Assembly: GCA_050953885.1 (NCBI GenBank)
Contig: JBMNNJ010000001.1
Span: forward strand, 9,137 to 73,136
Length of the DNA stretch: 64,000 nucleotides
Source of the DNA: Patescibacteria group bacterium
GTDB lineage: Bacteria; Patescibacteriota; Microgenomatia; 0-14-0-10-38-17
Direction: 5' to 3'
Positions within the stretch are counted from its first letter, which is position 1. Each line of letters begins with the position of its first letter. The notes beneath the pieces are model-generated. The model was not told the DNA's origin. It saw only the letters and a list, made by a program, of their open reading frames with translations, and ran no database searches. Made by a program: the position numbers and the translations under genes. Shown one piece after another: positions 9,261-55,822 of this stretch.

Positions 9261-9320
9261 TTTCCCGAGGTTCGAAGCTAATCAACCCCCGGAGTTAACT
9301 AGCTTCAAACCTCGGGAAAA
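9261..9320. repeat. 60-bp hairpin repeat element (CCGAGG family, copy A1)
   Basis: 20-bp inverted arms tttcccgaggttcgaagcta / tagcttcaaacctcgggaaa around loop atcaacccccggagttaac; sits in the divergent region between DUF763 and recJ. Confidence 0.7.
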
Positions 9321-18073: not shown

Positions 18074-19420
18074 TTATTTCCTTTTTAATTTTTCGACGAA
18101 GGGGTAGATTTCCGAAAGAAGATAAAGGGAGCCGGTAACCACCAATGGTTGGTAATTTTTTTTGCCGATTACTTTTTGCGGGTCGGGAGCAATTTCAAAA
18201 TTTTCAAATTTTAATTTTTTTAAAACTTTTTTAATTTTTTCCGGTCCTTCGGAAAGAGCCAGCCAATCTTGGTGACCTTGAAAAAAACGAGTCAAATAAA
18301 TTTTTTCGGCCAAGGGAATAATTTTTGGTAAGGCTTTGGCAAAATCTTTTTTCTTCTTGAAAGCAATTAAAAAATTAAATTTTTGGCCCGGGAAAAACTT
18401 TTTCAGATTTTTTGCGAGGGTGGCGATTTTTTGGGGGTTATGAGCGCCGTCTAAAATGATCATCTGTCCGTTTACTTTTAATATTTCTAAACGGCCGGCA
18501 AAGTGGGCTTTCTTAAGCGTTTGACGGATCTTTTTTTCGTCAAAAGGAAAAAAGTCTTTTTGGGAAAAAAAGGAAACAGCGGAAAGGGCGAGGCTGCAAT
18601 TTTCTGCCTGATGAGCGCCCAAAAGAGCCAGTTCTAAATTTTTGAACTCATAAGGCGGTTGGAAGAAATCAAAAATTGTTTTTTCAGGTGTGGCTTTAAT
18701 ATTTTTAAAATTAATCCCCTTTTTAATAAAAAAAAGCTTGGCTTTTTCTTCGCGGGCAATTTTTTCAAAAATTTTGTTGGCGGCGGGTTTTTGCTTTAGG
18801 GCAAAAACCGTGTTGCCCGGGTGGATAATTTTGGCTTTTTGAAGAGCGATTTCGCCGATGGTTTTGCCAAGCACCTGGGTGTGGTCGAGACCGATTCGGG
18901 TAAGAATGGCCACTTTTTGAGAGTTTTTAATCACGTTAGTGGCGTCATACCAACCACCTAAACCAGTTTCCACTACCGCATAGTCAACTTTCTCCTGATA
19001 AAAAGCTTGGAAGGCGAGAGCGATAAGAATTTCAAAGTAAGTAGGGGAGCCGTAAGGTGATTGGGCCATTTTTTTAATTGCTCCCAGAAGCTGATTAAGA
19101 TAAAAAACAAACTTTTTTTCGCTAATTAATTGGTTGTTAATTTGGACTCTTTCGCGAATATCCACTAAATGAGGCGAAAGGGTGAGGCCGGTTTTAAAAC
19201 CAAAATCGGTAAGGATTTGGCTGGTAAGATAGGCGGTGGAACCTTTGCCGGAAGTGCCGGCGATGTGGATAACTTTAATTTTTTCCTGGGGATTGCCGAT
19301 TAGCTTGAGAAGCAATTTCGTCCGATCCAAGCCCCGCTGGCCGGGGAAAGTATTTTTCTTGCCTTGGGGAATTTGCCGGTAAAGGAAATTTTGCGCTTCG
19401 GAAAAAGTTTTAATTTTCAT
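18074..19420 (-). CDS. folC: folylpolyglutamate synthase / dihydrofolate synthase (Mur ligase family)
   Basis: P-loop HIAGTSGKGST; Mur-ligase middle and C-terminal domains. Confidence 0.8.
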   Translation of the reverse strand: MKIKTFSEAQNFLYRQIPQGKKNTFPGQRGLDRTKLLLKLIGNPQEKIKVIHIAGTSGKGSTAYLTSQILTDFGFKTGLTLSPHLVDIRERVQINNQLISEKKFVFYLNQLLGAIKKMAQSPYGSPTYFEILIALAFQAFYQEKVDYAVVETGLGGWYDATNVIKNSQKVAILTRIGLDHTQVLGKTIGEIALQKAKIIHPGNTVFALKQKPAANKIFEKIAREEKAKLFFIKKGINFKNIKATPEKTIFDFFQPPYEFKNLELALLGAHQAENCSLALSAVSFFSQKDFFPFDEKKIRQTLKKAHFAGRLEILKVNGQMIILDGAHNPQKIATLAKNLKKFFPGQKFNFLIAFKKKKDFAKALPKIIPLAEKIYLTRFFQGHQDWLALSEGPEKIKKVLKKLKFENFEIAPDPQKVIGKKNYQPLVVTGSLYLLSEIYPFVEKLKRK

Positions 19421-19643
19421 TTCTTTTTGAGATTATAGCGTATTTAAAAATAAATGGCTAAATTGTCCAATTGTTAGGCTGTTAAGTTATTACCTTGCCT
19501 CCCTCGGCGGGACAATTCAACAAGAGAACAATTTACCAAGAGGTTTTTTGTCTTTTATCCTTGACTCTTAATACAAAATGCTTGATACATTTTTGGCTTT
19601 TGGGCCGTTTTTTTGCTAAAATAGGAACTGGTTTTTAACCTTT

Positions 19644-19717
19644 TGCCCGGTCGTCTAACGGTAGGACAGGCGGCTCTGAACCGTCTAATCCAGGTTCGAA
19701 TCCTGGCTGGGCAACCA
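19644..19717 (+). tRNA. tRNA-Gln (anticodon CTG)
   Basis: Cloverleaf: acceptor TGCCCGG/CTGGGCA, anticodon stem GGCGG/CCGTC with loop CTCTGAA, T-arm CCAGGTTCGAATCCTGG, 3' ACCA encoded; U1-A72 start is typical of tRNA-Gln. Confidence 0.8.
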
Positions 19718-20296
19718 TTCGACTCGCTACGCTTGCTCATGGCTATAGCCGGAAGGGAATCAGTTCTCAAAGAATTTGACATAACGATTATTTCCTATTA
19801 TTTCCCAGAATTTAAAGAAGAATTGATTGAGAAATTAAGAAAACAAAAGGAGCCAAAAGGGAGGCAGAATTTCTAAAATTAAAAAAGTGTGTTTATCTTG
19901 ATATCTTTCAACACATCAAGAACGTCATCATGTAAATAGTTAACTTTATTTTTCGTTTCTCTTGAATAATCTGCAATATCTGCTACCCAATTCCAAACAT
20001 CCTCAAAATTAGATCGCATATTTCTAATTTGAATAGAAATATAAATTAAAAAGATAAAGAAAATCAACCATCTATTATTTTCAATAAATCTATTAATTTT
20101 TTTATCATAATATTACTATAACATTTTGATATTTTTTAAGATTATACTAATTTAGCTTCCAGAAATGACTCCTCTAGAAGCTAAAACCATAAAGCTAATA
20201 GTCTGTTAGAATATTTATAGAAAAACATTCAAGTAGAATCTCTGACACTGATTGTGAATTTTACGGGCGTAGAAAATTAATTCAATCATTTGAAAA

Positions 20297-21691
20297 ATGA
20301 ATGACCAAATATTAAAAATAATCCGGGGAAAAAAGAATAGTTCTTGGTGGTTAAAATCAGAAAAAAAGGTTATTGACAGATACGGTTATATTTTCCAACC
20401 AGGCAATTTGGGCAATCTGACAAAAGAAGACTTCTTATCATTTTTGCTTGTTAAAAACAATCTTCATTGGGAAGGAATCCATCGCCACCAGGAGTCTATT
20501 ATTTTGGATATGGAGAAACTAAAACGAACATTAACTTTTTTATTGAATGAATCAAAGAGTCTTACTGATCGCCTAAATAGTCTTTCGCCTAAAAATGGAG
20601 AATATTATATTAAGGGTCTTGGAAAAGCTATTATCACCCCAATATTGCTTGTTGTTTATCCTGATAAATACGGGGTTTGGAATCAAAAAAGCGAAGATGC
20701 TTTAAAGAAATTAGAATTATTTCCTGAATTTCAAAGAGGAAATTCTTTTGGGGAAAAATATGCCAAGGTGAACAATGTTTTAAACAATTTAAAAGAAAAA
20801 TATGCGATTAGTCTTTGGCAGCTTGATGGTGTGTTAGGAGAAATTGCTGGCAATGGCCCGTTTGAAATAATTGTTGACGAAGAAAATAAAGAAAAGGAAA
20901 TAGAAAAGAAAGATAAACAACTAATAAGATTTTGTAAATATTGTGGTGAAAGAATTGATGCCGACTCGATATATTGTTGTTTTTGTGGCAGAAAGATAGT
21001 CTCAAAAATAAATGAAAGAAAAAGTTACAAAAGATTGAGCTTTTATTCTCGAGAAGAATTATTAGAATATGCCGAATTTGTTAATAAAAATTATCGTTTG
21101 GGTGATAAAGGACTTTTGTATTACAAAAAAGTAATCGGTTTTCATAAAAAATACGGTGATATCAAAGGGCTTTTGAGAGATGAAGATTTTTTAAAAACTA
21201 TTTATGAGACCCTTAAGGCTTGGAATATGAATCAAAGAGGTGCTAGGTTAAAAAGTCTACCTGAAATTAAAAAATCGATCTTAAATTTAGAGGATGACAT
21301 ATCTTGGCTATCTAATTATGAATTAGACTCTTTAAAAGAAGCCGAACTTGAAGAAGTTCTTAATAAACTTAAAAAGGTTTTTATCAATTTAAAACCAATG
21401 AAATCGAGGACTCAAATCGTAGGTACCTCAAAATTAATGCATTTTTTATTGCCAAATTTAGTGATGCCGATGGATAGAAAATACACCTTAAGTTTTCTTT
21501 CTCTAGGTCATAATTATTGGAAGGATATTAGAGCAGAATTTGATGAATTTAAAAGAGTTTTTATAATATTTTATAGATATGCTGAAAAATTTAGTTTGAC
21601 CGTTGACGATACAGATGATCAAGCCTGGAATCTATCAGTACCAAAAATTATTGACAATGCGATTATTGGTGTTCAGAAATCTAATAATTAA
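20297..21691 (+). CDS. hypothetical protein with central Zn-ribbon (CKYCGERIDADSIYCCFCGRKI), in AT-rich island
   Basis: Long ORF in a visibly AT-rich tRNA-adjacent segment; only the CxxC...CxxC ribbon is recognisable. Confidence 0.4.
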   Translation: MNDQILKIIRGKKNSSWWLKSEKKVIDRYGYIFQPGNLGNLTKEDFLSFLLVKNNLHWEGIHRHQESIILDMEKLKRTLTFLLNESKSLTDRLNSLSPKNGEYYIKGLGKAIITPILLVVYPDKYGVWNQKSEDALKKLELFPEFQRGNSFGEKYAKVNNVLNNLKEKYAISLWQLDGVLGEIAGNGPFEIIVDEENKEKEIEKKDKQLIRFCKYCGERIDADSIYCCFCGRKIVSKINERKSYKRLSFYSREELLEYAEFVNKNYRLGDKGLLYYKKVIGFHKKYGDIKGLLRDEDFLKTIYETLKAWNMNQRGARLKSLPEIKKSILNLEDDISWLSNYELDSLKEAELEEVLNKLKKVFINLKPMKSRTQIVGTSKLMHFLLPNLVMPMDRKYTLSFLSLGHNYWKDIRAEFDEFKRVFIIFYRYAEKFSLTVDDTDDQAWNLSVPKIIDNAIIGVQKSNN

Positions 21692-21712
21692 AAATGACAA
21701 GCATACTATACA

Positions 21713-21752
21713 CTACTACACACCCGATGTGATTTACCCTTTGCACATCGGG
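21713..21752. repeat. CACCCGATGTG hairpin repeat (copy 1, includes 19-bp half-site ctactacacacccgatgtg)
   Basis: cccgatgtg-atttaccctttg-cacatcggg; 21713-21731 is the exact reverse complement of 26421-26439. Confidence 0.65.
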
Positions 21753-21856
21753 ATAAATAGGAGAATCATTTTTTAACCAGAGATTTATTTTTAACTAAGC
21801 CAATTATCAGAAAGAGCTGGAGAAGATTAAACATTTAACCTGGGAAAACTGATTTT

Positions 21857-21890
21857 GCCGATGTGCCATATCTGTTGCATATCGGGTGCG
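21857..21890. repeat. CACCCGATGTG hairpin repeat (degenerate copy 2)
   Basis: gccgatgtgcc-atatctgtt-gcatatcgggtgcg. Confidence 0.5.
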
Positions 21891-21963
21891 CAAGTCCTAG
21901 TTGTTTATTATTACAATGGGTAACGCAAAAGAGGTACTAAGTCAAGCAAGGGAATGGGTAATT

Positions 21964-23037
21964 TTAGATTTTTGTTAGTTCTCTTAAAAATCCTTCGAAT
22001 TGATCAGTTTGAAGGTCTTTGAGTTGTATTCGTGCAATTTTTCCGAATTGCTCGCCTCTGAAGGATACTCTTTCAAATTTGAAGGGCACCTTACTTAATA
22101 CCTTTTCAACGCCTTCTTTGTTTTTACTTGTTACCCAAATTTGAAAACCTCCACCTTCTGCGTCAGGATTTAACGGCAAGTTAATTGAAACTTTGTCATT
22201 AAAGGAAGTAACTGCATAAAAGTTAAGATACTTGGGAGATTTTGCAGATGAAATATTTGGGTAATTAGTCTGGTTACTGTTAATCTTATTCATTAAATCT
22301 AATAATTCAATAACTCGTTTTTCTTCAGGTCTTCCTCTGTAATAACTTAAAAATTCGTCGTCGGTTGGAACTATTTTTGAAGGTGTTGACTTACCGATGT
22401 CTTTTTTAATTTCGGCTCCATATAGCTTAGGAATTAGGATTTCAAAATTCTGATGTTTGTAAAATTCCAATTCAACTGCATAAATTGTAAACTCGCTATT
22501 ATTATTTAAAAAAACAATTAAATCTTTTAATTGAAGAGGGAGATGATCCATTAGGACCACAAACTTAAAGTTACCGTCATTCAAATTTCTTCTGATATTT
22601 TCCAAAAGAATATCGATTTCTTCTTCTGGAATATTAAAAAATTCATTTAGCCTTTGATTTAAAGTTTTGTTAAAATCCTTATTGATGTGTATATTAATTT
22701 GTTCAATAAAATCGGCAAAATCTCGATAGTTTGACCATAACGAAGCACCATAATCCAAAACTTGAGCAACCACAGTTCTTTTATCCGGGTTTTTATAAAG
22801 TTTGGTTTCAACAAGATAAATTTCGCCTTCTTTATCGACCCCTAGGGCATCAATCGGCCCACTGGCTGTATTAAATTCTCGAGCCAGAATCAAAAGCCGA
22901 ATATCTTCTTTAATATCATAAAGAGGAATACTTTCCGGATTATTGTAGATATATTGTTGAAGATGATCTTCTAGCTCGAAGTTACTTTTGTCTATTTTGA
23001 CTGCGTTTTTGCCGTTTCTTGAGATGATAATTGCCAT
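21964..23037 (-). CDS. PD-(D/E)xK nuclease-family protein (NucS/DUF91-like N-terminal domain) with unknown C-terminal domain
   Basis: Motif GPIDALGVDKEGEIYLVETK (D-x(n)-E-x-K) near the N-terminus; AT-rich island; flanked by hairpin repeats on both sides. Confidence 0.45.
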   Translation of the reverse strand: MAIIISRNGKNAVKIDKSNFELEDHLQQYIYNNPESIPLYDIKEDIRLLILAREFNTASGPIDALGVDKEGEIYLVETKLYKNPDKRTVVAQVLDYGASLWSNYRDFADFIEQINIHINKDFNKTLNQRLNEFFNIPEEEIDILLENIRRNLNDGNFKFVVLMDHLPLQLKDLIVFLNNNSEFTIYAVELEFYKHQNFEILIPKLYGAEIKKDIGKSTPSKIVPTDDEFLSYYRGRPEEKRVIELLDLMNKINSNQTNYPNISSAKSPKYLNFYAVTSFNDKVSINLPLNPDAEGGGFQIWVTSKNKEGVEKVLSKVPFKFERVSFRGEQFGKIARIQLKDLQTDQFEGFLRELTKI

Positions 23038-23301
23038 TTTCCCTCCAATTTTTTAATTGCCGGAGGGGATTAACTACAAAAGCTCCCCGTCAGCTGATGG
23101 TTCTTACGGAATCCACCCGCCAATCTTTCGATTGGTAACCTGCAGAAGATAACACTGGCGAAAAGCTTTCGCCTCTTCTGCAGGATTTTCTTGCCATGCC
23201 CAAAGGCTTGCGCCTCTGAGTTTAGACAATATTATTGTTAAGGTGATTATATAAAATTAGGGGTAGCTTTTCAAGTCTTCGTAATGTTCAGTTAACAGTA
23301 A

Positions 23302-23345
23302 TTACGCACCCGATGTGATTTACCCCTTGCACATCGGGTGCGTAA
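23302..23345. repeat. CACCCGATGTG hairpin repeat (copy 3, perfect 16-bp stem)
   Basis: ttacgcacccgatgtg-atttaccccttg-cacatcgggtgcgtaa. Confidence 0.7.
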
Positions 23346-23544
23346 TAGGTGACTCGGAATTTGCTAAGAAAATCGCCTCCGACCTTCCCAGAACAGCCAA
23401 TTTTTTGCTTTTATTATTTTTCTTGACATAAGGCTTTGCTGTTTTGGCATCGGAGAATTGTTTTAATGAGGCTAAAATAAGGCTTTTTGAAAGAAAAAGT
23501 CCTGCTTTTGCGTATAACAATTAGATACCAGTCAGTAAAAGGAG

Positions 23545-23931
23545 GTGAGAAAGATGACAAACAAAAAACTTTTAATAATGGTTTTATTGGCCTTAGGTGT
23601 TGGGATGCTATTTAAAACAACATCCTCTGTTTTTGCCTACCGGGGAGATTCCAATGCTCAGGGTCCGAATTGCACCCAAGAAAGGCATGAGGCGATGACC
23701 AAGGCGTTTGAAAATAATGATTATAACGCCTGGAAAAACTTGAAGCGGGGCAATGGCAGGATAACCCAAGTTATTAACGAGGGGAATTTTGCCAGATTTG
23801 CCGAAATGCGCCGGCTAATGCTTGACGGGAAAACCGAGGAAGCCAATCAAATCAGGGCGGAATTGGGTTTAGGCTTGGGTAATGGTTCAGGCAATGCTCA
23901 GGGAAAGGGTTACGGGAGAAAGAGCCGATAA
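23545..23931 (+). CDS. small secreted protein (signal peptide, Gly-rich C-terminus)
   Basis: Strong SD (aaaggaggtgag) upstream; N-terminal signal-like hydrophobic segment LLIMVLLALGVGMLF. Confidence 0.4.
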   Translation: MRKMTNKKLLIMVLLALGVGMLFKTTSSVFAYRGDSNAQGPNCTQERHEAMTKAFENNDYNAWKNLKRGNGRITQVINEGNFARFAEMRRLMLDGKTEEANQIRAELGLGLGNGSGNAQGKGYGRKSR

Positions 23932-24041
23932 ACTTTTTTTCCAAAAAAAGCTAACGCTCCGCTTTAAAAAAGCGGGGCGTTAGCGGTTGGTAAAAGTCAA
24001 AGAAGATTGTTTTTAGGCAATTTTAGCTATAATAATAAAAG

Positions 24042-24590
24042 ATGGTTAAAATATTAAAATTATCGGACGAACAATTGGTTGATTATATACGGGAAAAAGA
24101 TAAAGAAGCTTATGTTGAAATTGTTAACCGTTACAAGGATAGGCTGGTAAGATATGCGACATATTTAACGGGGGACAGCAACAACGCTTCCGATGCGGTT
24201 CAGGAAGCTTTCATTAAAGCTTACATAAATTTAAACGGCTTTAACACGAAAAAAAAGTTTTCAAGCTGGATTTACCGGATTGTTCATAACGAGGCCATGA
24301 ACTTATTGCGAAGGGATAATAAGGAATTGCCAATATTTAAAGATGTTGATTTTAAAAGCGGTGTTAACTTGGAAGAAGAATTGATTAAAAAAGAGTTGCA
24401 GGCGCATGCCCATCATTGTTTGAGCCAGATGCCGCTTATTTATCGGGAAGTGCTTTCTTTATATTTTCTCGAAGAAAGGTCATATGAAGAAATTAGTGAT
24501 ATTTTAAGAATTCCCATCGGCACGGTTGGAACCAGAATTAACAGGGCTAAAGTTTTGATGAAAAAAATATGCCAAAAAACAAAAAAATAA
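24042..24590 (+). CDS. RNA polymerase sigma-70 family ECF sigma factor
   Basis: Region 2 (YLTGDSNNASDAVQEAFIKAY...FSSWIYRIVHNEAMNLLRR) and region 4 HTH (SYEEISDILRIPIGTVGTRINRAK). Confidence 0.8.
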   Translation: MVKILKLSDEQLVDYIREKDKEAYVEIVNRYKDRLVRYATYLTGDSNNASDAVQEAFIKAYINLNGFNTKKKFSSWIYRIVHNEAMNLLRRDNKELPIFKDVDFKSGVNLEEELIKKELQAHAHHCLSQMPLIYREVLSLYFLEERSYEEISDILRIPIGTVGTRINRAKVLMKKICQKTKK

Positions 24591-25189: not shown

Positions 25190-26176
25190 TTAGTGCTTTT
25201 TTATTTCAATTACGCTGGAATTTTTTTTCGCTTTTATCCTTATCGTTCCGCCAACAGGGAAAGTGATTTTGGGGTCAGTATGGCCAAAATCAACTCCTGC
25301 CAAAACCGGTAAAGAAGACAGTTCTTTTTTGGTTTTGATAATTTGCCGAAGCATTTTATTGTTTATCCTGCTTTTCTTTTGAAAACGGCCAATCACCAAG
25401 CCTTTAACTTTTGAGAATTCCGGCAAGTGAATGATTGATTGTAAGTCTCGGTCAAAGTGGTAAGGATTTGATTCCTCATCGTCTTCAAGAAAGAGGATTG
25501 CTTTTGAGAGAGAGGGGAAAAACGGTGTTCCCTGAAGGAGATTAAAAGAGCAAAGATTGCCTCCTAAAATTGTTCCCTCTGCCCTGCCTTCGTTTAAAAC
25601 TAACCAGCCTTGGTTGGGAATAAGTTTTCTTTTTTCTTGGTTTTTATACCAAGGGTCATCGCTCCAAAATTGGCTGGGTTCAATCCTAAAAGGCTTTTTG
25701 GAAAAAAGACATTTTTTAAAGTAATTAAGGGTATAATCAAAATAAAGCTTTTGGCCGAAGGTAGAGTAATGAGGGCCGGAGTAGGTTATCAGACCGGTTT
25801 TGGCTAAAATAGCATTACTCAAAACGCTAATATCAGAAAATCCGCAAAGAATTTTAGGATTATTTTTGATTAACTGCCAGTCAATGTAGTCGAGTAATTG
25901 ATTGGAATTAAAACCGCCGATAACGGTTAATATTGCCTTAACGTTCTTGTCACGAAAGGCTTCGTGCAAATCCTCAATTCTTGAGCTAATTGAAGAGGAA
26001 GAAAAATCATCGCTTTCTTCAACGTGTTTGCCAAAAGAAAGTTTAAAGCCTAATTCTTTAAGCCTTTGGTTGGCAATTTGGCGAGATTCTGCCGAGATTA
26101 TTGACAATGAGCGCGCCGGGGCAATCACTCTTATTTCGTCACCCGCCCTTAGTTTTTCAGGAAAAATTTTCTTCAT
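25190..26176 (-). CDS. ldcA: LD-carboxypeptidase (peptidase S66, LdcA/MccF-like)
   Basis: Motifs GDEIRVIAPA, nucleophile Ser in GFSDISVLS, catalytic His in VDFGHTDP. Confidence 0.75.
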   Translation of the reverse strand: MKKIFPEKLRAGDEIRVIAPARSLSIISAESRQIANQRLKELGFKLSFGKHVEESDDFSSSSISSRIEDLHEAFRDKNVKAILTVIGGFNSNQLLDYIDWQLIKNNPKILCGFSDISVLSNAILAKTGLITYSGPHYSTFGQKLYFDYTLNYFKKCLFSKKPFRIEPSQFWSDDPWYKNQEKRKLIPNQGWLVLNEGRAEGTILGGNLCSFNLLQGTPFFPSLSKAILFLEDDEESNPYHFDRDLQSIIHLPEFSKVKGLVIGRFQKKSRINNKMLRQIIKTKKELSSLPVLAGVDFGHTDPKITFPVGGTIRIKAKKNSSVIEIKKH

Positions 26177-26420
26177 TGAAAAGATTATAGCAAAAATCGC
26201 CGGCAGTGGTTACGGAAATACTATGTAGTATTTCCGTAACCAGGCGTAAATTAGGGGATAGTTCCTCTGATGTGTCTATTTAACCCACACCAGTGTGTTT
26301 ATCTCTGCTGCCGCCAAATTTCGTTTTTTGCTTCGCAAAAAGCGCCGCAAGAAAAGGTGTTGCCCTTGTCCCAGCTCTCCCTTGCGCGGGTAACGATAAA
26401 GAACTCTCTAATTTAGTAAA

Positions 26421-26439
26421 CCACATCGGGTGTGTAGTA
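26421..26439. repeat. half-site cacatcgggtgtgtagtag (inverted partner of 21713-21731)
   Basis: Exact 19-bp reverse complement of 21713-21731; immediately adjacent to IS copy 1. Confidence 0.6.
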
Positions 26440-26479
26440 GCAGGGGGTACTACTTAGTCCACACTATGCGGAGATTAGA

Positions 26480-27592
26480 TTAATTTTGGTGATGTGCCAA
26501 GACATTGTATCCACTCCAAGGGCCTAGTTTTACCGAGACATCATCAAGGATAATCGGTTGTACATAACGTATGTTATCATCAATCTCTGGTAATTGCATT
26601 TTCAGATATTGGTAGGGTATTTGATAGTCTAAGGATGAGTGTTCCCGGACATTGTTGTAGTAATAAATGTAACCCAGGGCCTCATTCAAGAGATCTTTTT
26701 TGCTCTTAATCTGTAGGACCCTGGGAATGTAGAACTCTTCGTCATCGGTTCTATGGCTTCTTTCCAAATGAGCATTCTCCTCAGGATGACCTTTGTGGTT
26801 CTGGATTAATCTACAGCCAAAACCCCTGATCAGTTTTCTTAACTCTTTGACCTTCAACCAGGATCTACCCCCAAATTCCTCACCATTATCAACAGTAAAG
26901 GCAATCTCTGATTTAACCCCATGAGACCTTAACCAGGAAATAGTCCAAAGGTAAAAACACAAACCATTAGTCCAAGATTTTTCCTTGGAATAAGCAATTA
27001 GTTTAAACCTAGAGTTAACATCCAGGGCTCCCCATTGATAGTTGGGAATATCATATTGGTTAAGATGAATAATTTGCTTTTTAGTCAGGGCTTTCTGATC
27101 CCTAATGAATTTGATATCCATTTGGACAATCTCAAAAGGTTTGGCTGAATACCAGTCAACAAACTCCCTTGGTTGTTTTCTTCTCTTGTTTGATTTTAGT
27201 TTGTAAGTAAGCCTGTCTTTATTCCTCCTTAGAATGTGCCTGATTGTTCCTGGAGGAACAAGAATCCCTTCATGTTTCTCAAGGTAGCGTGATAATCTTT
27301 TTGGCCCCAGGTGGGTTTTGTTCTTGGCCTTAATGACTTTACCTTCTGTCTTGGCTGGTGTCTTGTTGGGCTGGTGTTTTGGTATCTTGGGTCTGTCTTT
27401 AAGATTGCCCTCTTTGCTTTTTGCCAAGATGTCATAAACCACTGTCCTGTTGACCCTAAAAACCCTGGCGGTATCAGCAATGTTGTGGCCATTAGTCTTT
27501 AGATACTCAATCACTGTTTGTCTGGCTGCTTCTGGATTAATCTTTCTTAATTCCTTGTAGTCTATCCGGATTCCATGGATTCCAGGACTCAT
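26480..27592 (-). CDS. DDE transposase (N-terminal HTH + rve integrase core), IS481-like
   Basis: HTH (NIADTARVFRVNRTVVYDIL); DDE residues in QMDIKFI, FTVDNGEEFGG, HPEENAHLERSHRTDDEEFY; 100% identical to the first about 367 aa of the ORF at 42099. Confidence 0.8.
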   Translation of the reverse strand: MSPGIHGIRIDYKELRKINPEAARQTVIEYLKTNGHNIADTARVFRVNRTVVYDILAKSKEGNLKDRPKIPKHQPNKTPAKTEGKVIKAKNKTHLGPKRLSRYLEKHEGILVPPGTIRHILRRNKDRLTYKLKSNKRRKQPREFVDWYSAKPFEIVQMDIKFIRDQKALTKKQIIHLNQYDIPNYQWGALDVNSRFKLIAYSKEKSWTNGLCFYLWTISWLRSHGVKSEIAFTVDNGEEFGGRSWLKVKELRKLIRGFGCRLIQNHKGHPEENAHLERSHRTDDEEFYIPRVLQIKSKKDLLNEALGYIYYYNNVREHSSLDYQIPYQYLKMQLPEIDDNIRYVQPIILDDVSVKLGPWSGYNVLAHHQN

Positions 27593-27716
27593 GCTTTTTC
27601 ACCCCCTTTACTACACTCTCAAAATTAACACCCACCAATTTTAACACTCTTCTTACATATTCCTCATACCCAAACCTCATGAAGTGTATAGCATGTCCTG
27701 GACACCGCACATTTTT
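26483..27716 (-). mobile_element. IS element copy 1 (about 1.23 kb, IS481-like, single transposase ORF); boundaries approximate
   Basis: Sequence essentially identical to 41975-43203 in inverted orientation; identity decays at about 26489 and about 27714. Confidence 0.8.
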
Positions 27717-27756
27717 CCCTTGAGGGGAAAGAGGACTTGGAGTAAGATAAAAGCTA

Positions 27757-27867
27757 ATGCCTATTTATAAGCTTAAGGATATTCCCAAGTTGGAAAGGCC
27801 AAGAGAAAAACTAGTCAAGTATGGTCCCCAGTTTTTGGTAAACTCCGAGCTTTTAGAGAGCTTCTAA
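27757..27867 (+). pseudogene. RadC/UPF0758 N-terminal fragment (36 codons then stop)
   Basis: MPIYKLKDIPKLERPREKLVKYGPQFLVNSELLESF* matches the conserved RadC N-terminus (ERPREKL..G...LSD.ELLAI); truncated where the CCGAGG hairpin repeat begins. Confidence 0.45.
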
Positions 27868-27944
27868 CCCCCGGCGTTAAATAGCTTCAAGCCTCGGAAG
27901 AAAATATTATCTTGGCCATATATGGTGTTAAAATTAGTTTATGG
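27843..27944. repeat. CCGAGG hairpin repeat copy A2 (degenerate left arm) plus conserved 40-bp tail with promoter-like TGTTAAAAT
   Basis: cttctaacccccggcgttaaatagcttcaagcctcggaag followed by aaaatattatcttggccatatatggtgttaaaattagtt; the tail is about 85% identical to 35031-35073. Confidence 0.6.
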
Positions 27945-32547: not shown

Positions 32548-33204
32548 CTATTGGGAATTTTTATTTTTAAAAATTATTTTTTCTCCCTTACCGACGATTT
32601 CCCACTTTTCTCCAATTATTTTAACTGCCTGGAAATCGTTAATGGCCACGATCGGATAGTTAACTGTTTTTGATTTTTTCTCCAAGAGCAGTTTATCGGC
32701 GTTGGTATAGTGAGGAGAAACGGCAAACGGGACAAGTTTTAGCCCTTCCAAATTTCTTAAGCGGGAGACATTTTTATCCCAATCGTTTTTCCAGCCGGCA
32801 ATGGCAATGCTGGGGCCGGCAAGAATGCTGCCGGCGCTTATTCCTAAATAAATTTTCCCTTGATCAAGGAGCTCTCCCAAATATTTATCTAAACCACATT
32901 TTCTTACCCAATATAAGAGAAAAAAGGTATTGCCGCCACCAATATTAATAATGTCAGTCTTTTTTAGTTTGTTTTTAATTGTTCTCGGATTTTCCCGCTT
33001 TAAATCAACGATTTCTATTTGAAAGCCAAAATTTTCCAGGCTTTCTTTTGCTTCTTTAAGATGAATGGGGTTAATTTTTGGGTAGCCGGCGGTGGGGATG
33101 ATGGCTGCTTTTAAACCGGAAGGATTTTTATCCAAAAGTTTGCCGAAATATGATGATATTTCTGGCTTTAGACCGGTAGAGGTTAAAAAAAGTTTCCTGT
33201 CCAT
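32548..33204 (-). CDS. peptidase S51 (dipeptidase E/cyanophycinase-like)
   Basis: IINIGGGNTFFLL and nucleophile Ser in GISAGSILAG. Confidence 0.65.
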   Translation of the reverse strand: MDRKLFLTSTGLKPEISSYFGKLLDKNPSGLKAAIIPTAGYPKINPIHLKEAKESLENFGFQIEIVDLKRENPRTIKNKLKKTDIINIGGGNTFFLLYWVRKCGLDKYLGELLDQGKIYLGISAGSILAGPSIAIAGWKNDWDKNVSRLRNLEGLKLVPFAVSPHYTNADKLLLEKKSKTVNYPIVAINDFQAVKIIGEKWEIVGKGEKIIFKNKNSQ

Positions 33205-33330
33205 TTTTTGCTTTTGTTATCTTTTTGGGTAACTTAGCTTAATTATTATACAATGATTCCTATGGTGCCAATCCTTTTATGATGTTATAATTTTTGCTAT
33301 GGATGAGCATATTTTAAATGTCCAGTTGCG

Positions 33331-33392
33331 GCGATTCCTTTTCTCTAAACCTCTTTTCCTCGTCGCCTCCGCCTTTTGTTTTTAGCAGATCC
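33331..33392. repeat. left copy of an inverted-repeat pair of about 60 bp flanking gene 33441-34565
   Basis: tttctctaaacctcttttcctcgtcgcctccgcc...tttgtttttagcaga is the near reverse complement of 34625-34690. Confidence 0.6.
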
Positions 33393-33440
33393 GCCGCTGA
33401 AAAGCGGCGGGTTAAAAAATAAAAAAATATATAAAAATTT

Positions 33441-34565
33441 TTATTCAAAACAAATATCTGGTTTATTTTCCATACGAATATATTGTTTGCTACCTCGTCT
33501 AACTTTATCAATATATAAATTACAATTTTCGTAAGTGCGATCTTCTTCTATACACTCACAAATTAATTTATCGTTGGTTTTATATGCAATTCGTTCAAAA
33601 CAAATATCTTTACTTGCTAATTTTGGGCGATATTTAGTTTCTGAAATATTTTGACAAATCGAGGGTTGACCCTTGTTATATGCAACGTGTGTGAAACAAA
33701 AATCTTTTGAATCTTTATCACTTATTTCATTACAATAAGATTGGTTTTGAGATGTAATTGCAATTTTTTTAATACACCAATCCGTCATATCCCGATCTTC
33801 TAAAGCCTTACACTGATTTATATCAGATTTGCCCATGGCAAAACATGCTGCCTTTAATAATGAATCTGAAATCTCTTGGCAAAATTTTTCATCTTGGCTA
33901 GACAAAGCTTTATTCGCAAGATCTATTTGTTTTGAATAAGAGCCGACCTGACTTGCTTTATTATTTTCCTCCCAAACTGGTCTTAACAGTAAAACCCCTG
34001 AAAGCAAGATATTAACAAGAAATGGCGAAATGACAGCGGCAATTATAACAAATAAAACCTTCTTCTTGTCGTATTTTTTTAGTTTCTTTAAAACCAGAAG
34101 TCCAATTAAGAAAATTATCACTAAAAAAATGAAAAGAGGTATTAAAGAAGTCCTATATTCTTCGTGGACGGTTCTTCCTTTAACTATGATATTTTTATCT
34201 CCCAATTTTCCGTTTAAAGTCCAGTTAATTTGTTCAACTTCTTCACCATTAACTGGTTCTCCGTGCCAAGGCCAAGAAACTTTTTTGTAAAAATAGGTTG
34301 TGTTGTGGTCTAATTCATAGCCGTCATCATTAAGTATTTTTTCTCCTTCTAAATAAAAAATTTGGGGGCATTCATTAGTAATTTCTAACGAACCACCACA
34401 AGCACCATATGTCTTGATTTTTAAACAATCAATATTATTTGGTTCTATAGAATCTATATAAGAAAAATATGGTGGGCAATATGCAAAAACTAAATTGGAA
34501 TTTCCCAGAAGAAATGTTACAAAAACTAGACTAAAAATTGGCAAAATTTTTTTGAGTGTCATCAT
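33441..34565 (-). CDS. secreted/membrane Cys-rich repeat protein
   Basis: Signal peptide, mid-protein TM; repeated C-x2-ISD/E-x-n-C-F modules (KFCQEISDSLLKAACF, YCNEISDKDSKDFCF, ICQNISETKY...ICF, ICECIEEDRTYENC). Confidence 0.4.
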   Translation of the reverse strand: MMTLKKILPIFSLVFVTFLLGNSNLVFAYCPPYFSYIDSIEPNNIDCLKIKTYGACGGSLEITNECPQIFYLEGEKILNDDGYELDHNTTYFYKKVSWPWHGEPVNGEEVEQINWTLNGKLGDKNIIVKGRTVHEEYRTSLIPLFIFLVIIFLIGLLVLKKLKKYDKKKVLFVIIAAVISPFLVNILLSGVLLLRPVWEENNKASQVGSYSKQIDLANKALSSQDEKFCQEISDSLLKAACFAMGKSDINQCKALEDRDMTDWCIKKIAITSQNQSYCNEISDKDSKDFCFTHVAYNKGQPSICQNISETKYRPKLASKDICFERIAYKTNDKLICECIEEDRTYENCNLYIDKVRRGSKQYIRMENKPDICFE

Positions 34566-34624
34566 ATTAATATAAAATTAAAAGTTTATTAATTATGTTA
34601 TATCAAATTAAAAAGCTTTTTCAA

Positions 34625-34690
34625 CTCTGCTAAAAACAGAAAGCGGAGGTGGAGGCGGTGAGGAAAAGGGGTTTAGAAAAAAAGAATCGT
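34625..34690. repeat. right copy of the inverted-repeat pair flanking gene 33441-34565
   Basis: Reverse complement reads tttttctaaaccccttttcctcaccgcctccacctccgctttctgtttttagcaga. Confidence 0.6.
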
Positions 34691-34972
34691 CGTAGCCGCC
34701 GACGCCGTTATATTCTCCTTAAATATGAGACAGTCTTCTCTTTTCAAGCTCATCATATTAAGTGATAAAGAGGCTCTCTTAGCATGATAATAATTAATCT
34801 CTTACTTCTTTTTTCTACCATTGGCAAGTCTTTAGTCCTGTATTTAACCCATCCGGACACACTCTTTTCCTAAAACCGATTAAGGCTTTCAATATAACTT
34901 TCCTCATTTTTCCGGTATGGCCTGGCCACTCGGTGTCTTTTGGTAAATTCTAAAACAAAGCTATAGTGGTGC

Positions 34973-35073
34973 TTTCCCGAGGTTTGAAGCTATTTAACTC
35001 CGGGGGTTGATTAGCTTCAAACCTCGGGAAAAACATATCTTGGTCTTATATGGTGTTAAAATTAAGTTAAGTG
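34973..35073. repeat. CCGAGG hairpin repeat copy A3 (inverted orientation relative to A1) plus conserved promoter-like tail
   Basis: tttcccgaggtttgaagcta-tttaactccgggggttgat-tagcttcaaacctcgggaaa; the loop is the reverse complement of the A1 loop; the tail atatcttggtcttatatggtgttaaaattaagtt sits immediately upstream of xseA. Confidence 0.7.
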
Positions 35074-41746: not shown

Positions 41747-41974
41747 TATTTTTCACCTCCTTTTGGGATAAACAGAAAGTTTGAAGATTGCACTAATTTG
41801 GTAAACCTTTATTTGGGCCAAAGCCTAAGAGAATTCCTAAAATGAAGAGTTAAAACCGGCGATTGAATTTTTGGGCATGGTTAGCAAGCGGTTGGGTTGT
41901 AGGGAGAAACGAAGTTTTCCTACTTGTGCGCTTCTTTAAATAAATTATAACTTAATTATTTTGAAAATCAAGAG

Positions 41975-43203
41975 GGAAATGTGCGGTGTCCAGGACATGC
42001 TATACACTTCATGAGGTTTGGGTATGAGGAATATGTAAGAAGAGTGTTAAAATTGGTGGGTGTTAATTTTGAGAGTGTAGTAAAGGGGGTGAAAAAGCAT
42101 GAGTCCTGGAATCCATGGAATCCGGATAGACTACAAGGAATTAAGAAAGATTAATCCAGAAGCAGCCAGACAAACAGTGATTGAGTATCTAAAGACTAAT
42201 GGCCACAACATTGCTGATACCGCCAGGGTTTTTAGGGTCAACAGGACAGTGGTTTATGACATCTTGGCAAAAAGCAAAGAGGGCAATCTTAAAGACAGAC
42301 CCAAGATACCAAAACACCAGCCCAACAAGACACCAGCCAAGACAGAAGGTAAAGTCATTAAGGCCAAGAACAAAACCCACCTGGGGCCAAAAAGATTATC
42401 ACGCTACCTTGAGAAACATGAAGGGATTCTTGTTCCTCCAGGAACAATCAGGCACATTCTAAGGAGGAATAAAGACAGGCTTACTTACAAACTAAAATCA
42501 AACAAGAGAAGAAAACAACCAAGGGAGTTTGTTGACTGGTATTCAGCTAAACCTTTTGAGATTGTCCAAATGGATATCAAATTCATTAGGGATCAGAAAG
42601 CCCTGACTAAAAAGCAAATTATTCATCTTAACCAATATGATATTCCCAACTATCAATGGGGAGCCCTGGATGTTAACTCTAGGTTTAAACTAATTGCTTA
42701 TTCCAAGGAAAAATCTTGGACTAATGGTTTGTGTTTTTACCTTTGGACTATTTCCTGGTTAAGGTCTCATGGGGTTAAATCAGAGATTGCCTTTACTGTT
42801 GATAATGGTGAGGAATTTGGGGGTAGATCCTGGTTGAAGGTCAAAGAGTTAAGAAAACTGATCAGGGGTTTTGGCTGTAGATTAATCCAGAACCACAAAG
42901 GTCATCCTGAGGAGAATGCTCATTTGGAAAGAAGCCATAGAACCGATGACGAAGAGTTCTACATTCCCAGGGTCCTACAGATTAAGAGCAAAAAAGATCT
43001 CTTGAATGAGGCCCTGGGTTACATTTATTACTACAACAATGTCCGGGAACACTCATCCTTAGACTATCAAATACCCTACCAATATCTGAAAATGCAATTA
43101 CCAGAGATTGATGATAACATACGTTATGTACAACCGATTATCCTTGATGATGTCTCGGTAAAACTAGGCCCTTGGAGTGGATACAATGTCTTGGCACATC
43201 ACC
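41975..43203 (+). mobile_element. IS element copy 2 (identical to copy 1, opposite orientation)
   Basis: Identity with 26483-27716 reverse complement begins at about 41975 (gggaaatgtgcgg) and ends at about 43203 (cacatcacc). Confidence 0.8.
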
Positions 43204-43322
43204 GAAATTGTTTTCCCGTCCAATCATGGTATTTTTCCTCAACCATTTGGCGTTCTTTTTCAACTCGTTGGTGGCGTTTTTCTAATTCGGCAGGAATAAC
43301 TTTTTTATTTTTCTTTAAATAA
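42099..43322 (+). CDS. DDE transposase, copy 2 (the ORF reads through the IS end; the in-element protein ends near 43205)
   Basis: Identical to the 26480-27592 product for about 367 aa; the last about 40 codons lie outside the IS and overlap iscU. Confidence 0.75.
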   Translation: MSPGIHGIRIDYKELRKINPEAARQTVIEYLKTNGHNIADTARVFRVNRTVVYDILAKSKEGNLKDRPKIPKHQPNKTPAKTEGKVIKAKNKTHLGPKRLSRYLEKHEGILVPPGTIRHILRRNKDRLTYKLKSNKRRKQPREFVDWYSAKPFEIVQMDIKFIRDQKALTKKQIIHLNQYDIPNYQWGALDVNSRFKLIAYSKEKSWTNGLCFYLWTISWLRSHGVKSEIAFTVDNGEEFGGRSWLKVKELRKLIRGFGCRLIQNHKGHPEENAHLERSHRTDDEEFYIPRVLQIKSKKDLLNEALGYIYYYNNVREHSSLDYQIPYQYLKMQLPEIDDNIRYVQPIILDDVSVKLGPWSGYNVLAHHRNCFPVQSWYFSSTIWRSFSTRWWRFSNSAGITFLFFFK

Positions 43323-50986: not shown

Positions 50987-51062
50987 TTTTTGCATCAGTA
51001 GACTATATTACGAATACAAGGGTAAAAAGTAAAGGAGAAAATTATCAAAATTAAAACCAATC
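50987..51062. repeat. left direct repeat (about 75 bp) flanking the AT-rich island
   Basis: ttttgcatcagtagactatattacgaatacaagggtaaaaagtaaaggagaaaattatcaaaattaaaaccaat is about 85% identical to 55749-55822. Confidence 0.7.
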
Positions 51063-51248
51063 AAGGATAAAAAAGCGTTTTTAGAGCCTCTGCGAAACAA
51101 ATCTTAAAACTGGCGGCTTCATTCGCCTTAATAACAGCCCTGTCGTTTTTTTAGTTTTAAAATTTTTTAAAAAAGTGAAACTATTGTACTATACAACAAG
51201 TGTATAATTGTATTTTAATTAAAATACCTACCATTAAGCACTATCGCT

Positions 51249-51758
51249 ATGAATACTCCCGAAAAAATTGGTATAACTAGAAAAAACTTGATGACACGTG
51301 AGACTGAGAAAAGACTAAAAATAGCCTTAGCCGAAGTTGAAGAAAAAGCAAAAATGGCATTAAAAGCTGTTGGTGAAAGTGCGGGACCAAGTAGTGATTG
51401 GCACGATAATTTCCCTTTCGAACAGGCTAATCGTGATTTCGAACTTTATTCTTCAGAAGTAACAATGATTAAAAAGCAATTAGAAAATCGAGAAATTATA
51501 AAACCAAGGGGAGAAATAGCGGAGGTAGGTGTAGGTAATGAGGTTGTTATTATCCTTAATAATGAAGAAAAGCCTGAAGTTTTTACGTTGCTAGGTAGTG
51601 CAGACTCATTTACGAAAACTGGCTGGCTTTCATGTGAATCGCCACTAGGGTCAAGCCTTATAGGCAAAAAAGTTGGGGAAATGATAATATTTTCCGTAGG
51701 GGAAAAGGTCATAAAAGGAAAGATTCTTGAAATTCGTCCCGGGAAATTTGATTTTTAG
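51249..51758 (+). CDS. GreA/GreB-family protein (Rnk-like, regulator-of-NDK type)
   Basis: C-terminal FKBP-like Gre domain: EVFTLLGSADSFTKTGWLSCESPLGSSLIGKKVGEMIIFSVGEKVIKGKILEIRP; N-terminal coiled coil lacks the acidic GreA tip. Confidence 0.65.
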   Translation: MNTPEKIGITRKNLMTRETEKRLKIALAEVEEKAKMALKAVGESAGPSSDWHDNFPFEQANRDFELYSSEVTMIKKQLENREIIKPRGEIAEVGVGNEVVIILNNEEKPEVFTLLGSADSFTKTGWLSCESPLGSSLIGKKVGEMIIFSVGEKVIKGKILEIRPGKFDF

Positions 51759-51795
51759 AAAAAATATGATAATATTGTAGAAAATAACAAAAGTA

Positions 51796-52329
51796 ATGAT
51801 TTCTATGTCTAACGCCCCTGTTTTCGAGTTTGAAAGAAAATTTATCGTTAAGAAAATAAGCTCGCTTCCTTTTGATCTAGCTAAGGCGCAAAAGGCCGAT
51901 ATTAAACAAGGTTTTTATTCAGGTTTGCCTTCTCCTTTGCGAATTAGAGCGATAAATGACGAATATACCCTGACGAAAAAATTTGTGTTAGGAGAAAATA
52001 AGGGCCAATTAGAAGAAGTAACTCTTCCTCTTAAAAAATCAGAATTTAAGGTTCTTTTCCCTCGCGCTTATAAGAAAATTTTCAAAACCCGTTATTCTTT
52101 TTGTTGGCATGGTTATAAGGTCGATCTTGATGTGTTTAGGGGGAAGCTTAAGGGCTTAATTATTGCCGAATTTGAATTTGCCAGCAAAGAGGAGATGGAA
52201 CAATTTCTTCCTCCCTCATTTTTAGGGGCGGAAATAACCCAACAAGAATGGGCCACTAATTCTCGTCTTGCCCTTTTAACTTTTAGCCGGCTCCAAAAAA
52301 TTCTTGTCCGTTATGAAAAAACTATCTGA
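51796..52329 (+). CDS. CYTH-domain protein (triphosphate tunnel metalloenzyme / CyaB-like)
   Basis: N-terminal ExExK signature FEFERKFIV; size about 177 aa fits CYTH. Confidence 0.6.
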   Translation: MISMSNAPVFEFERKFIVKKISSLPFDLAKAQKADIKQGFYSGLPSPLRIRAINDEYTLTKKFVLGENKGQLEEVTLPLKKSEFKVLFPRAYKKIFKTRYSFCWHGYKVDLDVFRGKLKGLIIAEFEFASKEEMEQFLPPSFLGAEITQQEWATNSRLALLTFSRLQKILVRYEKTI

Positions 52330-53569: not shown

Positions 53570-53765
53570 GAAAAATATTTTGCCTATGGATCCCGATTAT
53601 TTAAGGTACGAATCGTTTGAAAACCTATATGTCGAGACGCCACTTAAATGGGGTTTATTGTGTTTCAATCAAGCTCACCAGAAGCGAGAAGTTTTAAAAC
53701 TAACGACAGATATTGATGAAATACTATCATTGTTAAAAAAAAGGCTGGGAAAAGCATGCTGGTAG
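53541..53765 (+). CDS. small ORF (possibly the 5' part of a frameshifted gene continuing at 53797)
   Basis: ORF only; overlaps the upstream gene end; separated by 31 bp and a frame change from the next ORF. Confidence 0.2.
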   Translation: MPTIFIICFEKNILPMDPDYLRYESFENLYVETPLKWGLLCFNQAHQKREVLKLTTDIDEILSLLKKRLGKACW

Positions 53766-53796
53766 GAATCAATATATTTTACGTTCTCCTGAGAAA

Positions 53797-54630: not shown

Positions 54631-54635
54631 CGCCG

Positions 54636-55304: not shown

Positions 55305-55345
55305 TTTTAATTCCTCCTTTTTCTAACTTTACAAGAGATAATTTT

Positions 55346-55570: not shown

Positions 55571-55748
55571 AAGCTTGGTGGGATTTCTTAGTGCTTGTAG
55601 AGTGCCTGGTATCCATCCTGTTAGGTTAAGATAACTTAATATTCGAAAACATTTGAAAGCCTAATAAAGGAGGAAAAATAACCCGGGGGTTGTTTTAAGC
55701 AGCAGCAATTTTTTCTTAGTAGGCGCTGACTTTATTTATATTTTAAAC

Positions 55749-55822
55749 CTTTTGTATCAGTAGACTATATTACGAATGCAAGAACAAAAGTAAAAGAGAA
55801 ATTATCGTATTAAAATCAATTC
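55749..55822. repeat. right direct repeat (about 75 bp) flanking the AT-rich island
   Basis: cttttgtatcagtagactatattacgaatgcaagaacaaaagtaaaagagaaattatcgtattaaaatcaat. Confidence 0.7.

Follow-up and report, generated by a model that had tools for sequence, protein, structure and literature searches.

A probable accessory island at a palindromic repeat element beside tRNA-Gln in a candidate phyla radiation genome, and the LOOT RNA that precedes its NucS-like nuclease gene

Introduction

Madara, the new name of PDC-S11, is a single-gene, modification-dependent defence nuclease of Escherichia coli ECOR34 that joins an N-terminal NucS-like nuclease to a C-terminal EVE-like domain for sensing; it restricts T4 with glucosyl-hydroxymethylcytosine (ghmC) in its DNA but not T4(C), and the substitution D63A abolishes defence (bioRxiv 10.64898/2026.09.05.749240). 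A distant relative of this protein is encoded beside tRNA-Gln in the stretch of DNA analysed here (hereafter the window), which comprises 64 kb of contig JBMNNJ010000001.1 (assembly GCA_050953885.1) from a bacterium of the candidate phyla radiation (CPR) with a Microgenomates-type genome. The relative is the product of open reading frame (ORF) 2, which lies, together with a second gene, ORF1, in what is best explained as a small accessory island, most likely anti-phage, built up at a palindromic repeat element adjacent to tRNA-Gln, a reading to which a probability of roughly 0.7 is given. Both genes are horizontally acquired and probably anti-phage. CPR bacteria have tiny genomes with few recognised defence systems, and their mobile elements are almost unstudied; the locus places a distant relative of Madara/PDC-S11 in this group, with rarer occurrences in other bacteria and in archaea.

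Like Madara, the ORF2 product belongs to the single proteins of ~360-390 amino acids (aa) with an N-terminal NucS-like PD-(D/E)xK nuclease, the catalytic Asp stands at position 63 in both, and its gene has an AT-rich, horizontally acquired setting. In contrast to a full counterpart, it matches only across aa ~7-202, and the EVE-like C-terminal domain of Madara is not detectably related to its own. A structured RNA leader and the location in a CPR integrative-element hotspot also set it apart, and a phage-defence phenotype has been described only for the Madara of E. coli. With NucS/EndoMS (2vld, 5gke), the protein shares the PD-(D/E)xK core fold and motif; however, the nuclease of NucS is C-terminal, behind a DNA-binding N-domain, and ORF2 is an accessory rather than a core gene.

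Two further kinds of described systems resemble parts of the locus. The defence hotspots of P2-like prophages and P4-like satellites, on which Rousset and colleagues reportedly wrote in 2022, are said to hold swappable defence cargo at a fixed backbone position near the integrase. A similar slot between the large terminase subunit (TerL) and a serine recombinase holds interchangeable cargo in the elements related to the present locus (the ORF2 family, restriction-modification (RM) systems and others), whereas the host is a CPR bacterium, the backbone consists of genes for a ParB-methylase, a methylase, TerS, TerL and a serine recombinase, LOOT precedes the cargo in a subset, and the window retains no more than a stranded remnant. 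Correia elements, repetitive extragenic palindromic (REP) sequences, bacterial interspersed mosaic elements (BIME) and other bacterial miniature inverted-repeat transposable elements (MITEs) are noncoding, palindrome-rich sequences of ~100-300 bp with terminal inverted repeats, dispersed and intergenic, often near gene 3′ ends. The 186-bp repeat element described below has the same build and, like them, is linked to rearrangement junctions, but it belongs to another sequence family (core CACCCGATGTG), and its window copies all lie within 5 kb.

The LOOT RNA is a metagenome-derived motif that is highly structured and shows strong covariation (PMC7657543), and Rfam lists it (RF03000) as a small RNA (sRNA) without a stated function (Weinberg et al. 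2017, PMC5737381; Rfam 14, PMC7779021). The copy in the window is a full-length member above the gathering score; beyond the Rfam entry, it stands behind a promoter and before variable cargo of integrative elements, with a covarying extension at its 3′ end. An orphan covarying RNA motif since 2017 thereby gains a genomic context. This context appears new, and part of it may already stand in the supplement of Weinberg et al. 2017.

The island itself, with accessory nuclease genes beside a tRNA and bounded by repeats, is ordinary, and ORF1 and ORF2 are, as far as their sequences tell, distant new variants within known defence-candidate families. What is new is the context of LOOT and the CPR element hotspot; the locus reveals a conserved integrative-element backbone with a cargo slot.

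The tRNA-Gln Site and Its Insertions

The gene for tRNA-Gln (anticodon CTG; 19644-19717, plus strand) was identified by ARAGORN and scored 57.9 bits with the Rfam tRNA model. Directly 3′ of it lies an AT-rich stretch of ~3.6 kb, in which the GC content is 0.29-0.32 across 20001-23000, compared with mostly ~0.39-0.47 (about 0.41) in the rest of the window, a deviation in base composition of the kind looked for in acquired islands. The stretch encodes ORF1 (464 aa; 20297-21691, plus strand) and ORF2 (357 aa; 21964-23037, minus strand). The original prediction, made from the sequence alone, had described this AT-rich stretch and its two proteins on opposite strands, the longer one with a CxxC..CxxC motif, and had interpreted the whole as an integrated, compositionally deviant island; the description is borne out, and the interpretation is supported by the comparison with related genomes that follows.

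Two close relatives (L290 and L321; compared loci are designated by L and a number) share 90-98% nt identity with the window in the flanks, L290 with 90-95% nt identity across the GltX, sigma and anti-sigma genes and L321 with 98% aa identity in GltX. In both, the 3′ end of tRNA-Gln is followed by TATG and then by GCTACA and hairpin A of the repeat element, and ORF1 and ORF2 are both missing. The region thus stands beside a tRNA and is missing at the same site in close relatives, and this empty site supports the island reading. In a more distant relative (L108), the gene order RecJ...GltX-FolC-tRNA-Gln is kept and synteny is lost exactly after the tRNA.

In L290, the space from the tRNA to the gene of a small secreted protein (window position 23545) is spanned by a composite repeat, in which hairpins A and B, a 70-nt unit and a third, long-looped hairpin are combined. 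Relative to this arrangement, the window has received two cargo insertions at opposite ends of the 186-bp element, which runs from hairpin A to hairpin B. The first, delimited by blastn and by the junctions with L290/L321, is an AT-rich cassette with ORF1 (19719-21715; GC about 0.29-0.31). The second is a module of LOOT and ORF2 (about 21901-23300, minus strand), which abuts the right end of the element (...GTCCTAG, ending at 21900) and has hairpin C as its far junction. The remainder of the composite repeat persists in degenerate form at 26207-26440. The repeat element was thus at the tRNA site before both insertions.

The tRNA-Gln neighbourhood also varies on its other side. A FolC-like Mur-ligase gene (18074-19420), which lies between GltX and tRNA-Gln in the window, is present in L108, L109 and L110 and missing in L290 and L321, where the region from GltX to the tRNA measures about 210-245 nt.

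Donor-Type Integrative Elements

The second insertion is the cargo part of a widespread, phage-like CPR integrative element, which was recognised among 81 loci with an ORF2 homologue (L001-L081). In about 44 of the 81, a conserved backbone is found in the order ParB-methylase, methylase, TerS-like protein, TerL, cargo and large serine recombinase, so that the cargo slot lies between TerL and the recombinase. No capsid genes were found within 6 kb of the backbone in these loci, and the backbone may therefore be that of a satellite-like element. The two closest homologues of ORF2 (L081, 83% aa identity; L001, 76%) are cargo of elements that adjoin tRNA-Gln(CTG), with order and orientation as in the window. 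This tRNA is a landmark shared by the homologous elements of L001 and L081 with the empty sites of L290 and L321.

Nucleotide homology between the window and L001/L081 is restricted to 21901-23257 (79% identity with L081 over 21901-23095 by blastn). On one side it extends as far as the recombinase start codon would lie, on the other to a point just upstream of the LOOT promoter. A remnant of 63 nt between ORF2 and the former recombinase gene is retained (21901-21963, minus strand), and the homology with L081 stops at the recombinase start codon. No relatives of the terminase, the methylases or the recombinase of the donor-type element were found anywhere in the window. Since the homology is confined to the cargo and the backbone genes are missing, the window holds a stranded cargo module, in which only the cargo, its promoter and the 63 nt of the upstream region of the recombinase remain.

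On this evidence, the island was most likely assembled in three steps. A donor-type terminase/recombinase element would have integrated beside tRNA-Gln, as suggested by L001 and L081. Recombination in or between the hairpin repeats, to which the junctions point, would then have trimmed it to a fixed cargo gene, while ORF1 would have arrived separately as a single-gene cassette.

The LOOT RNA and Its Downstream Genes

The LOOT RNA of the window (23096-23228, minus strand) scores 65.5 bits against a gathering score of 46.4 and covers model positions 1-121 of 121 without truncation. The original prediction had noted a nested hairpin at 23149-23184; this hairpin exists, as helix P3 of LOOT. A sigma-70-type promoter, TTGAAA-17-TATAAT (23246-23274, minus strand), is the best in 19400-24100 with a match of 11/12; it lies ~18 nt upstream of LOOT, and the end of LOOT lies 59 nt before the ATG of ORF2. 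In other LOOT loci, a TATAAT box precedes GCCTAAAC by 20-25 nt. The position between promoter and start codon on the same strand, which is that of a cis-acting leader, is found in all 19 LOOTs examined.

The 213-nt leader is predicted to fold into the Rfam helices and a further hairpin at the Shine-Dalgarno sequence (z -5.1). In this hairpin (23041-23068, minus strand; minimum free energy and centroid fold), CCCCUCC would pair with the ORF2 Shine-Dalgarno sequence GGAGGG. Between it and LOOT lies a 3′ extension, AGCUGACGGGGAGCUUUUGUAG (23069-23095, minus strand), which can pair with the apical and 3′ parts of P3 and ends U-rich. In the LOOTs compared, this segment, which lies beyond the Rfam model and is followed by a U-rich tract, has the consensus GGCGGGGAGCUUUGUGU; its pairing with P3 beats that of shuffled sequences in 13 of 19, with at least 6 compensatory sequence classes. 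The extension covaries with the apical part of P3, and the Rfam model of LOOT may be incomplete at its 3′ end. The pairing pattern would suit either a pseudoknot or a switch of the attenuator type.

With a model based on four LOOTs, the motif was detected in 12 of the 81 sources, each time directly 5′ of the ORF2 homologue and on its strand, and nowhere else in 900 kb. As this sample is biased towards ORF2, IMG/VR was also searched by LOOT sequence patterns; the scans returned 60 stretches and then at least 120, mostly chance matches. Six real LOOTs, all above the Rfam gathering score, were recognised among the matches listed, and in five of these six the gene that follows is unrelated to ORF2. 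The downstream genes encode a Zn-ribbon/membrane protein that has an Ig-like domain (its element carries a related terminase), a type IIG/I RM enzyme with S subunit, an ORF2-family nuclease, small membrane proteins, and two unknown proteins. One 40.7-kb viral contig, IMGVR_UViG_3300025323_000435 (L161, L199), carries two LOOTs, one before a type IIG/I RM system and one before an ORF2-family nuclease. At two genome loci, one or two small ORFs stand between LOOT and the nuclease gene.

These contexts bear on the question whether LOOT is a functional partner of the nuclease, either as a guide or scaffold like HEARO/omega-RNA with IscB or as a type III antitoxin as in ToxIN, or else a trans-acting sRNA. 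Such a role is unlikely. LOOT does always lie immediately 5′ of the next gene on the same strand, its strong structure and covariation would suit a functional RNA, and a 3′ helix with a U-rich tract could end a discrete RNA of ~160 nt; a discrete sRNA with read-through is likewise compatible with the data. However, the unrelated genes behind LOOT in IMG/VR speak against a dedicated partner, and LOOT occurs as a single copy, unlike the repeat array of ToxI. Moreover, homologues with 61-74% identity to ORF2 (L002, L005 and L006) have no LOOT, which argues that the nuclease protein does not need it and that LOOT is not its cofactor. Since it elsewhere precedes genes for RM systems, membrane proteins and unknown proteins, LOOT is, on comparative sequence evidence, a promoter-proximal leader before interchangeable cargo and not a partner of the nuclease.

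As a leader, LOOT would be transcribed from ~10 nt upstream of GUCUAAAC, with the transcript reading into ORF2. The layout and the predicted structures suggest that ORF2 would thus be expressed from its own sigma-70 promoter through a leader of ~160 nt that gates its expression. Gating might operate by pairing of the 3′ segment with P3 just before the U-rich tract, as a termination or folding switch, or, in this genome, by a hairpin that sequesters the ribosome-binding site. Tentatively, LOOT might be a portable sensor or regulator of terminase-bearing serine-recombinase elements throughout the CPR, in which a promoter-LOOT cassette would gate defence or exclusion cargo by a switch between P3 and the 3′ tail in response to a ligand or an infection signal; this is possible, although on balance doubtful. 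If true, it would be the first structured RNA leader dedicated to the defence cargo of mobile elements and would give an orphan motif a function.

The Palindromic Repeat Element

The hairpin core CACCCGATGTG (at most 1 mismatch) occurs five times in the window, compared with 0.28 expected, and none of 100 shuffles contained five or more copies. Hairpin A (21717-21752) has a 9-bp stem, CCCGATGTG/CACATCGGG, and a 12-nt loop (-9.8 kcal/mol, z -5.4). Hairpin B (21851-21890, or 21851-21895 as the right end of the element) is degenerate, with 64% identity, and its fold lacks significant stability (z -1.55). Hairpin C (23301-23346) is the only one of the three with a full, perfect 17-bp stem (-20.4 kcal/mol, z -8.4); it is a chimera of two hairpins, in which the right half and its flank correspond to the third hairpin of the ancestral composite repeat, as seen in L290, while an A-type arm makes up the left half. 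The three had been predicted as near-identical stable hairpins, which holds for the likeness of A and C (94% identity across 36 nt, loop included) and for the stability of C, but not for the short stem of A or for B.

Hairpins A and B form the left and right ends of a MITE/REP-like element of ~186 bp (21715-21900), whose terminal inverted repeats of ~13 nt are about CACACCCGATGTG, the two ends being CACACCCGATGTG and CACATCGGGTGTG. When JGI/ENA metagenome contigs were scanned for the hairpin, 42 loci were obtained. In 13 of the contigs, a type-A hairpin with the same loop is followed by the conserved sequence ATAAATAGGAGAATCATTTTTT, and the 186-bp element is conserved end to end at 83-97% identity with at least six different types of flank; further contigs have the same 11-bp core with other loops and compensating outer stems. 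Related genomes carry the element at several other junctions. The element is thus noncoding and present in many copies with fixed ends, terminal inverted repeats and varied flanks, as is typical of MITE/REP-like repeats. Conservation as one unit with differing flanks points to copying rather than to convergent function. The hairpins, which had been predicted to punctuate the island, are not island-specific and belong to a dispersed repeat that predates the insertions.

No consistent target-site duplication was found at the aligned junctions of the element. The ends of the insertion sequence (IS) present in the window are unrelated to it, and no cognate transposase was found for the element. 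A search of IMG/VR with the hairpin pattern gave four matches, all GC-rich chance matches with unrelated loops.

The element may serve as a recombination substrate or as a terminator or insulator, and less likely as an attachment (att) site. That the hairpins are nothing but rho-independent terminators or insulators between convergent and divergent genes, unrelated to insertion, has a low probability. Hairpins A and B do lie between the convergent ORF1 and ORF2, 34 of the 42 metagenome loci are intergenic and mostly within ~200 nt of a gene 3′ end, and a run of T follows 13 nt after type-A copies. On the other hand, hairpins A, B and C all went unreported in a terminator scan, with no T-tract abutting the stem, and hairpin C has divergent promoters on its two sides. 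Within the 186-bp unit, the loop is conserved together with ~110 nt of internal sequence in differing flanks, and both insertions as well as the chimeric hairpin are located at element ends. A terminator role could be additional to that of a repeat element.

It is rather improbable that the hairpins are att sites (attL/attR hybrids) of a large serine recombinase that brought the ORF2 module. Serine-integrase att sites have the size and shape of a ~46-bp imperfect palindrome with a ~12-bp spacer, and the hairpins fit this description; in addition, hairpin C is a chimera of two hairpins, the module junction falls exactly at the element end, and the donor-type elements carry a serine recombinase beside tRNA-Gln. 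Against this, the motif was not found around the recombinase and the tRNA in L001 and L081, and the hairpin is therefore not shown to be an att site of that recombinase. Neither a relative of that recombinase nor one of ORF2 is encoded at any of the 42 metagenome hairpin loci, and the 186-bp unit occurs at many junctions without such cargo.

A further copy was seen downstream of the island. The degenerate copy of the composite repeat (26207-26440) comprises a 70-nt unit (26207-26288) and a truncated fourth copy of the hairpin motif, an A-type arm (26415-26440). The unit, which occurs twice in L290, contains a perfect 17-bp palindrome, TGGTTACGGAAATACTA / TAGTATTTCCGTAACCA, at 26207-26242. The half-site at 26422-26440 was also considered as an inverted-repeat neighbour of the IS and rejected: comparison of the two IS copies places the true IS end ~45 nt away, and the half-site is thus a truncated repeat copy. 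A twister-P3 ribozyme candidate on the repeat element (21730-21802) was dismissed as noise (21 bits against a gathering score of 39.9, E 0.32). Compared with the window at 25190-27722, the relatives L290, L318 and L323 lack an LD-carboxypeptidase gene and the IS and have another copy of the 186-bp hairpin element directly after the anti-sigma gene.

The Proteins Encoded by ORF2 and ORF1

ORF2 encodes an N-terminal NucS-like PD-(D/E)xK nuclease, a helical linker and a C-terminal alpha/beta domain. The Pfam match is a weak one to NucS_C (E 5e-4), and the nuclease motif occupies residues 43-96; D63, E77 and K79 are invariant in 28 homologues, in agreement with the D..E.K motif that had been predicted at the N-terminus. 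The protein matches the PADLOC model PDC-S11 (PDLC04916) with E 5.7e-15 over aa 7-202. An alignment of the ORF2 family with the canonical PDC-S11 protein by hhalign reached a probability of 95.9% over aa 18-136 only. That canonical enterobacterial protein is annotated as DUF4268, is encoded on a plasmid beside SIR2 and restriction genes, and matches its own hidden Markov model (HMM) end to end (E 6e-169). Because the similarity is limited to the N-terminal part, ORF2 shares the nuclease module of Madara but is no full member of its family; its C-terminal ~140 residues have no detectable match to a known domain. The AlphaFold2 model (mean predicted local distance difference test (pLDDT) 78) has NucS 2vld and EndoMS 5gke as top Foldseek matches in the Protein Data Bank. 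By analogy, ORF2 is probably a sensor-coupled DNA endonuclease, which would act as a stand-alone NucS-like PD-(D/E)xK enzyme in the manner of Madara, although with a different C-terminal domain.

The ORF2 family has more than 2000 homologues, with 60-78% identity among Microgenomates. In species-representative genomes, its members are distributed throughout the CPR, with scattered occurrences in Chloroflexota, Geobacter-like bacteria, Planctomycetota and several archaea. Between these groups, the N-terminal domain retains 60-70% identity, which indicates horizontal spread of the family.

That ORF2 is a housekeeping mismatch-repair nuclease of the NucS/EndoMS type, in a core region whose AT-richness is local, is very improbable: the weak NucS_C similarity and the strong conservation among Microgenomates would suit it, but the gene is missing from the locus in the close relatives L290 and L321, the NCBIfam NucS equivalogs give 23.9 and 17.3 bits where the cut-offs are 216 and 252, the nuclease domain stands at the other end of the protein than in NucS, namely the N-terminus, synteny of the homologues with the window neighbours is not conserved, the family is patchily spread over bacteria and archaea, and the homologues usually lie between a terminase and a serine recombinase. 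The outcome named in the original prediction as speaking against it, namely orthologues in all relatives together with a housekeeping enzyme, was therefore not found, given the two relatives without both ORFs and a NucS score of 24 bits against 216.

ORF1 encodes an N-terminal all-alpha domain of ~195 aa with an Ogg2/HhH-glycosylase-like fold, together with a Zn ribbon (CxxC..CxxC) and an alpha domain at the C-terminus. Its Pfam matches are weak ones to Zn ribbons only. Residues 1-200 share 55-69% identity with the N-domain of CPR proteins of ~345 aa, which have a C-terminal NucS_C/YhcG_C nuclease and match PADLOC PDC-S02. In ORF1, the place of the nuclease is taken by the Zn ribbon and an alpha-helical domain; this domain is also found on its own, as a protein of 257 aa. 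The shared N-domain with a swapped C-terminus marks ORF1 as a domain-shuffled relative of a defence candidate. Foldseek matched its AlphaFold2 model to 8-oxoG glycosylases of the Ogg2 type (3knt, 3n0u; prob 1.0, E 0.02). On the strength of this model, ORF1 may be a DNA-base-reading protein derived from a PDC-S02-like nuclease, and a sensor or accessory defence protein. A homologue in L082 (69% identical) lies among a Shedu-type SduA_C gene, a DUF559 nuclease gene and a protease gene. No nuclease or other recognisable effector domain was detected in ORF1, and the prediction of defence-type nuclease genes is thus supported for ORF2, with its PDC-S11 match and its homologues as cargo of integrative elements, and fails for ORF1.

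Several results weigh against the island, its assembly or its proposed functions. With respect to integration, no polymorphism was seen within the population, where contigs with identical FolC, ORF2 or transposase (98-100% identity) all carry the island; the short contigs L109 and L110 added nothing to this comparison. The search proposed in the original prediction, for an integrase or a duplication of the tRNA 3′ end, found neither: the 23 nt at the 3′ end of the tRNA have no second occurrence in the window (at most 3 mismatches), and no relative of the L001 recombinase or terminase is encoded anywhere in it. A repeat of the tRNA 3′ end is not expected after integration by a serine recombinase. 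With integrase, terminase and tRNA-end duplication all missing from the window, the route of integration is reconstructed rather than observed, and the lack of the hairpin motif in L001 and L081 counts in the same direction. With respect to the proteins, the HMM match of ORF2 to PDC-S11 ends at ~aa 202 of 357 and leaves the C-terminal domain unmatched, ORF1 has no match in PADLOC, and its structure model has a pLDDT of 65, with a well-predicted N-domain and low confidence elsewhere. With respect to the leader, 69 of the 81 ORF2-homologue sources have no LOOT, and the hairpin at the Shine-Dalgarno sequence, also predicted in L001 and L004, is not predicted in all LOOT loci.

Other Features of the Window

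An IS of ~1.24 kb is present in two copies (26481-27722, minus strand; 41968-43209, plus strand) that are 99.6% identical. It encodes a rve_3/HTH transposase of 370 aa, which reads through to 407 aa in the second copy. The IS ends are TGTGCGG... and ...GGCACAT, and several metagenome contigs switch flank or break there.

A second family of palindromic repeats, CCCGAGGTTTGAAGCTA...TAGCTTCAAACCTCGGG, occurs at intergenic junctions in the window (9278-9320, 27859-27914 and 34973-35038) and is common to related genomes (L039, L290, L291, L301 and L318) at ~90% identity. Two more AT-rich patches with GC 0.32-0.34 were noted at 33001-35000 and 51001-56000, one of which adjoins a copy of this second repeat family; both patches may be other acquired segments.

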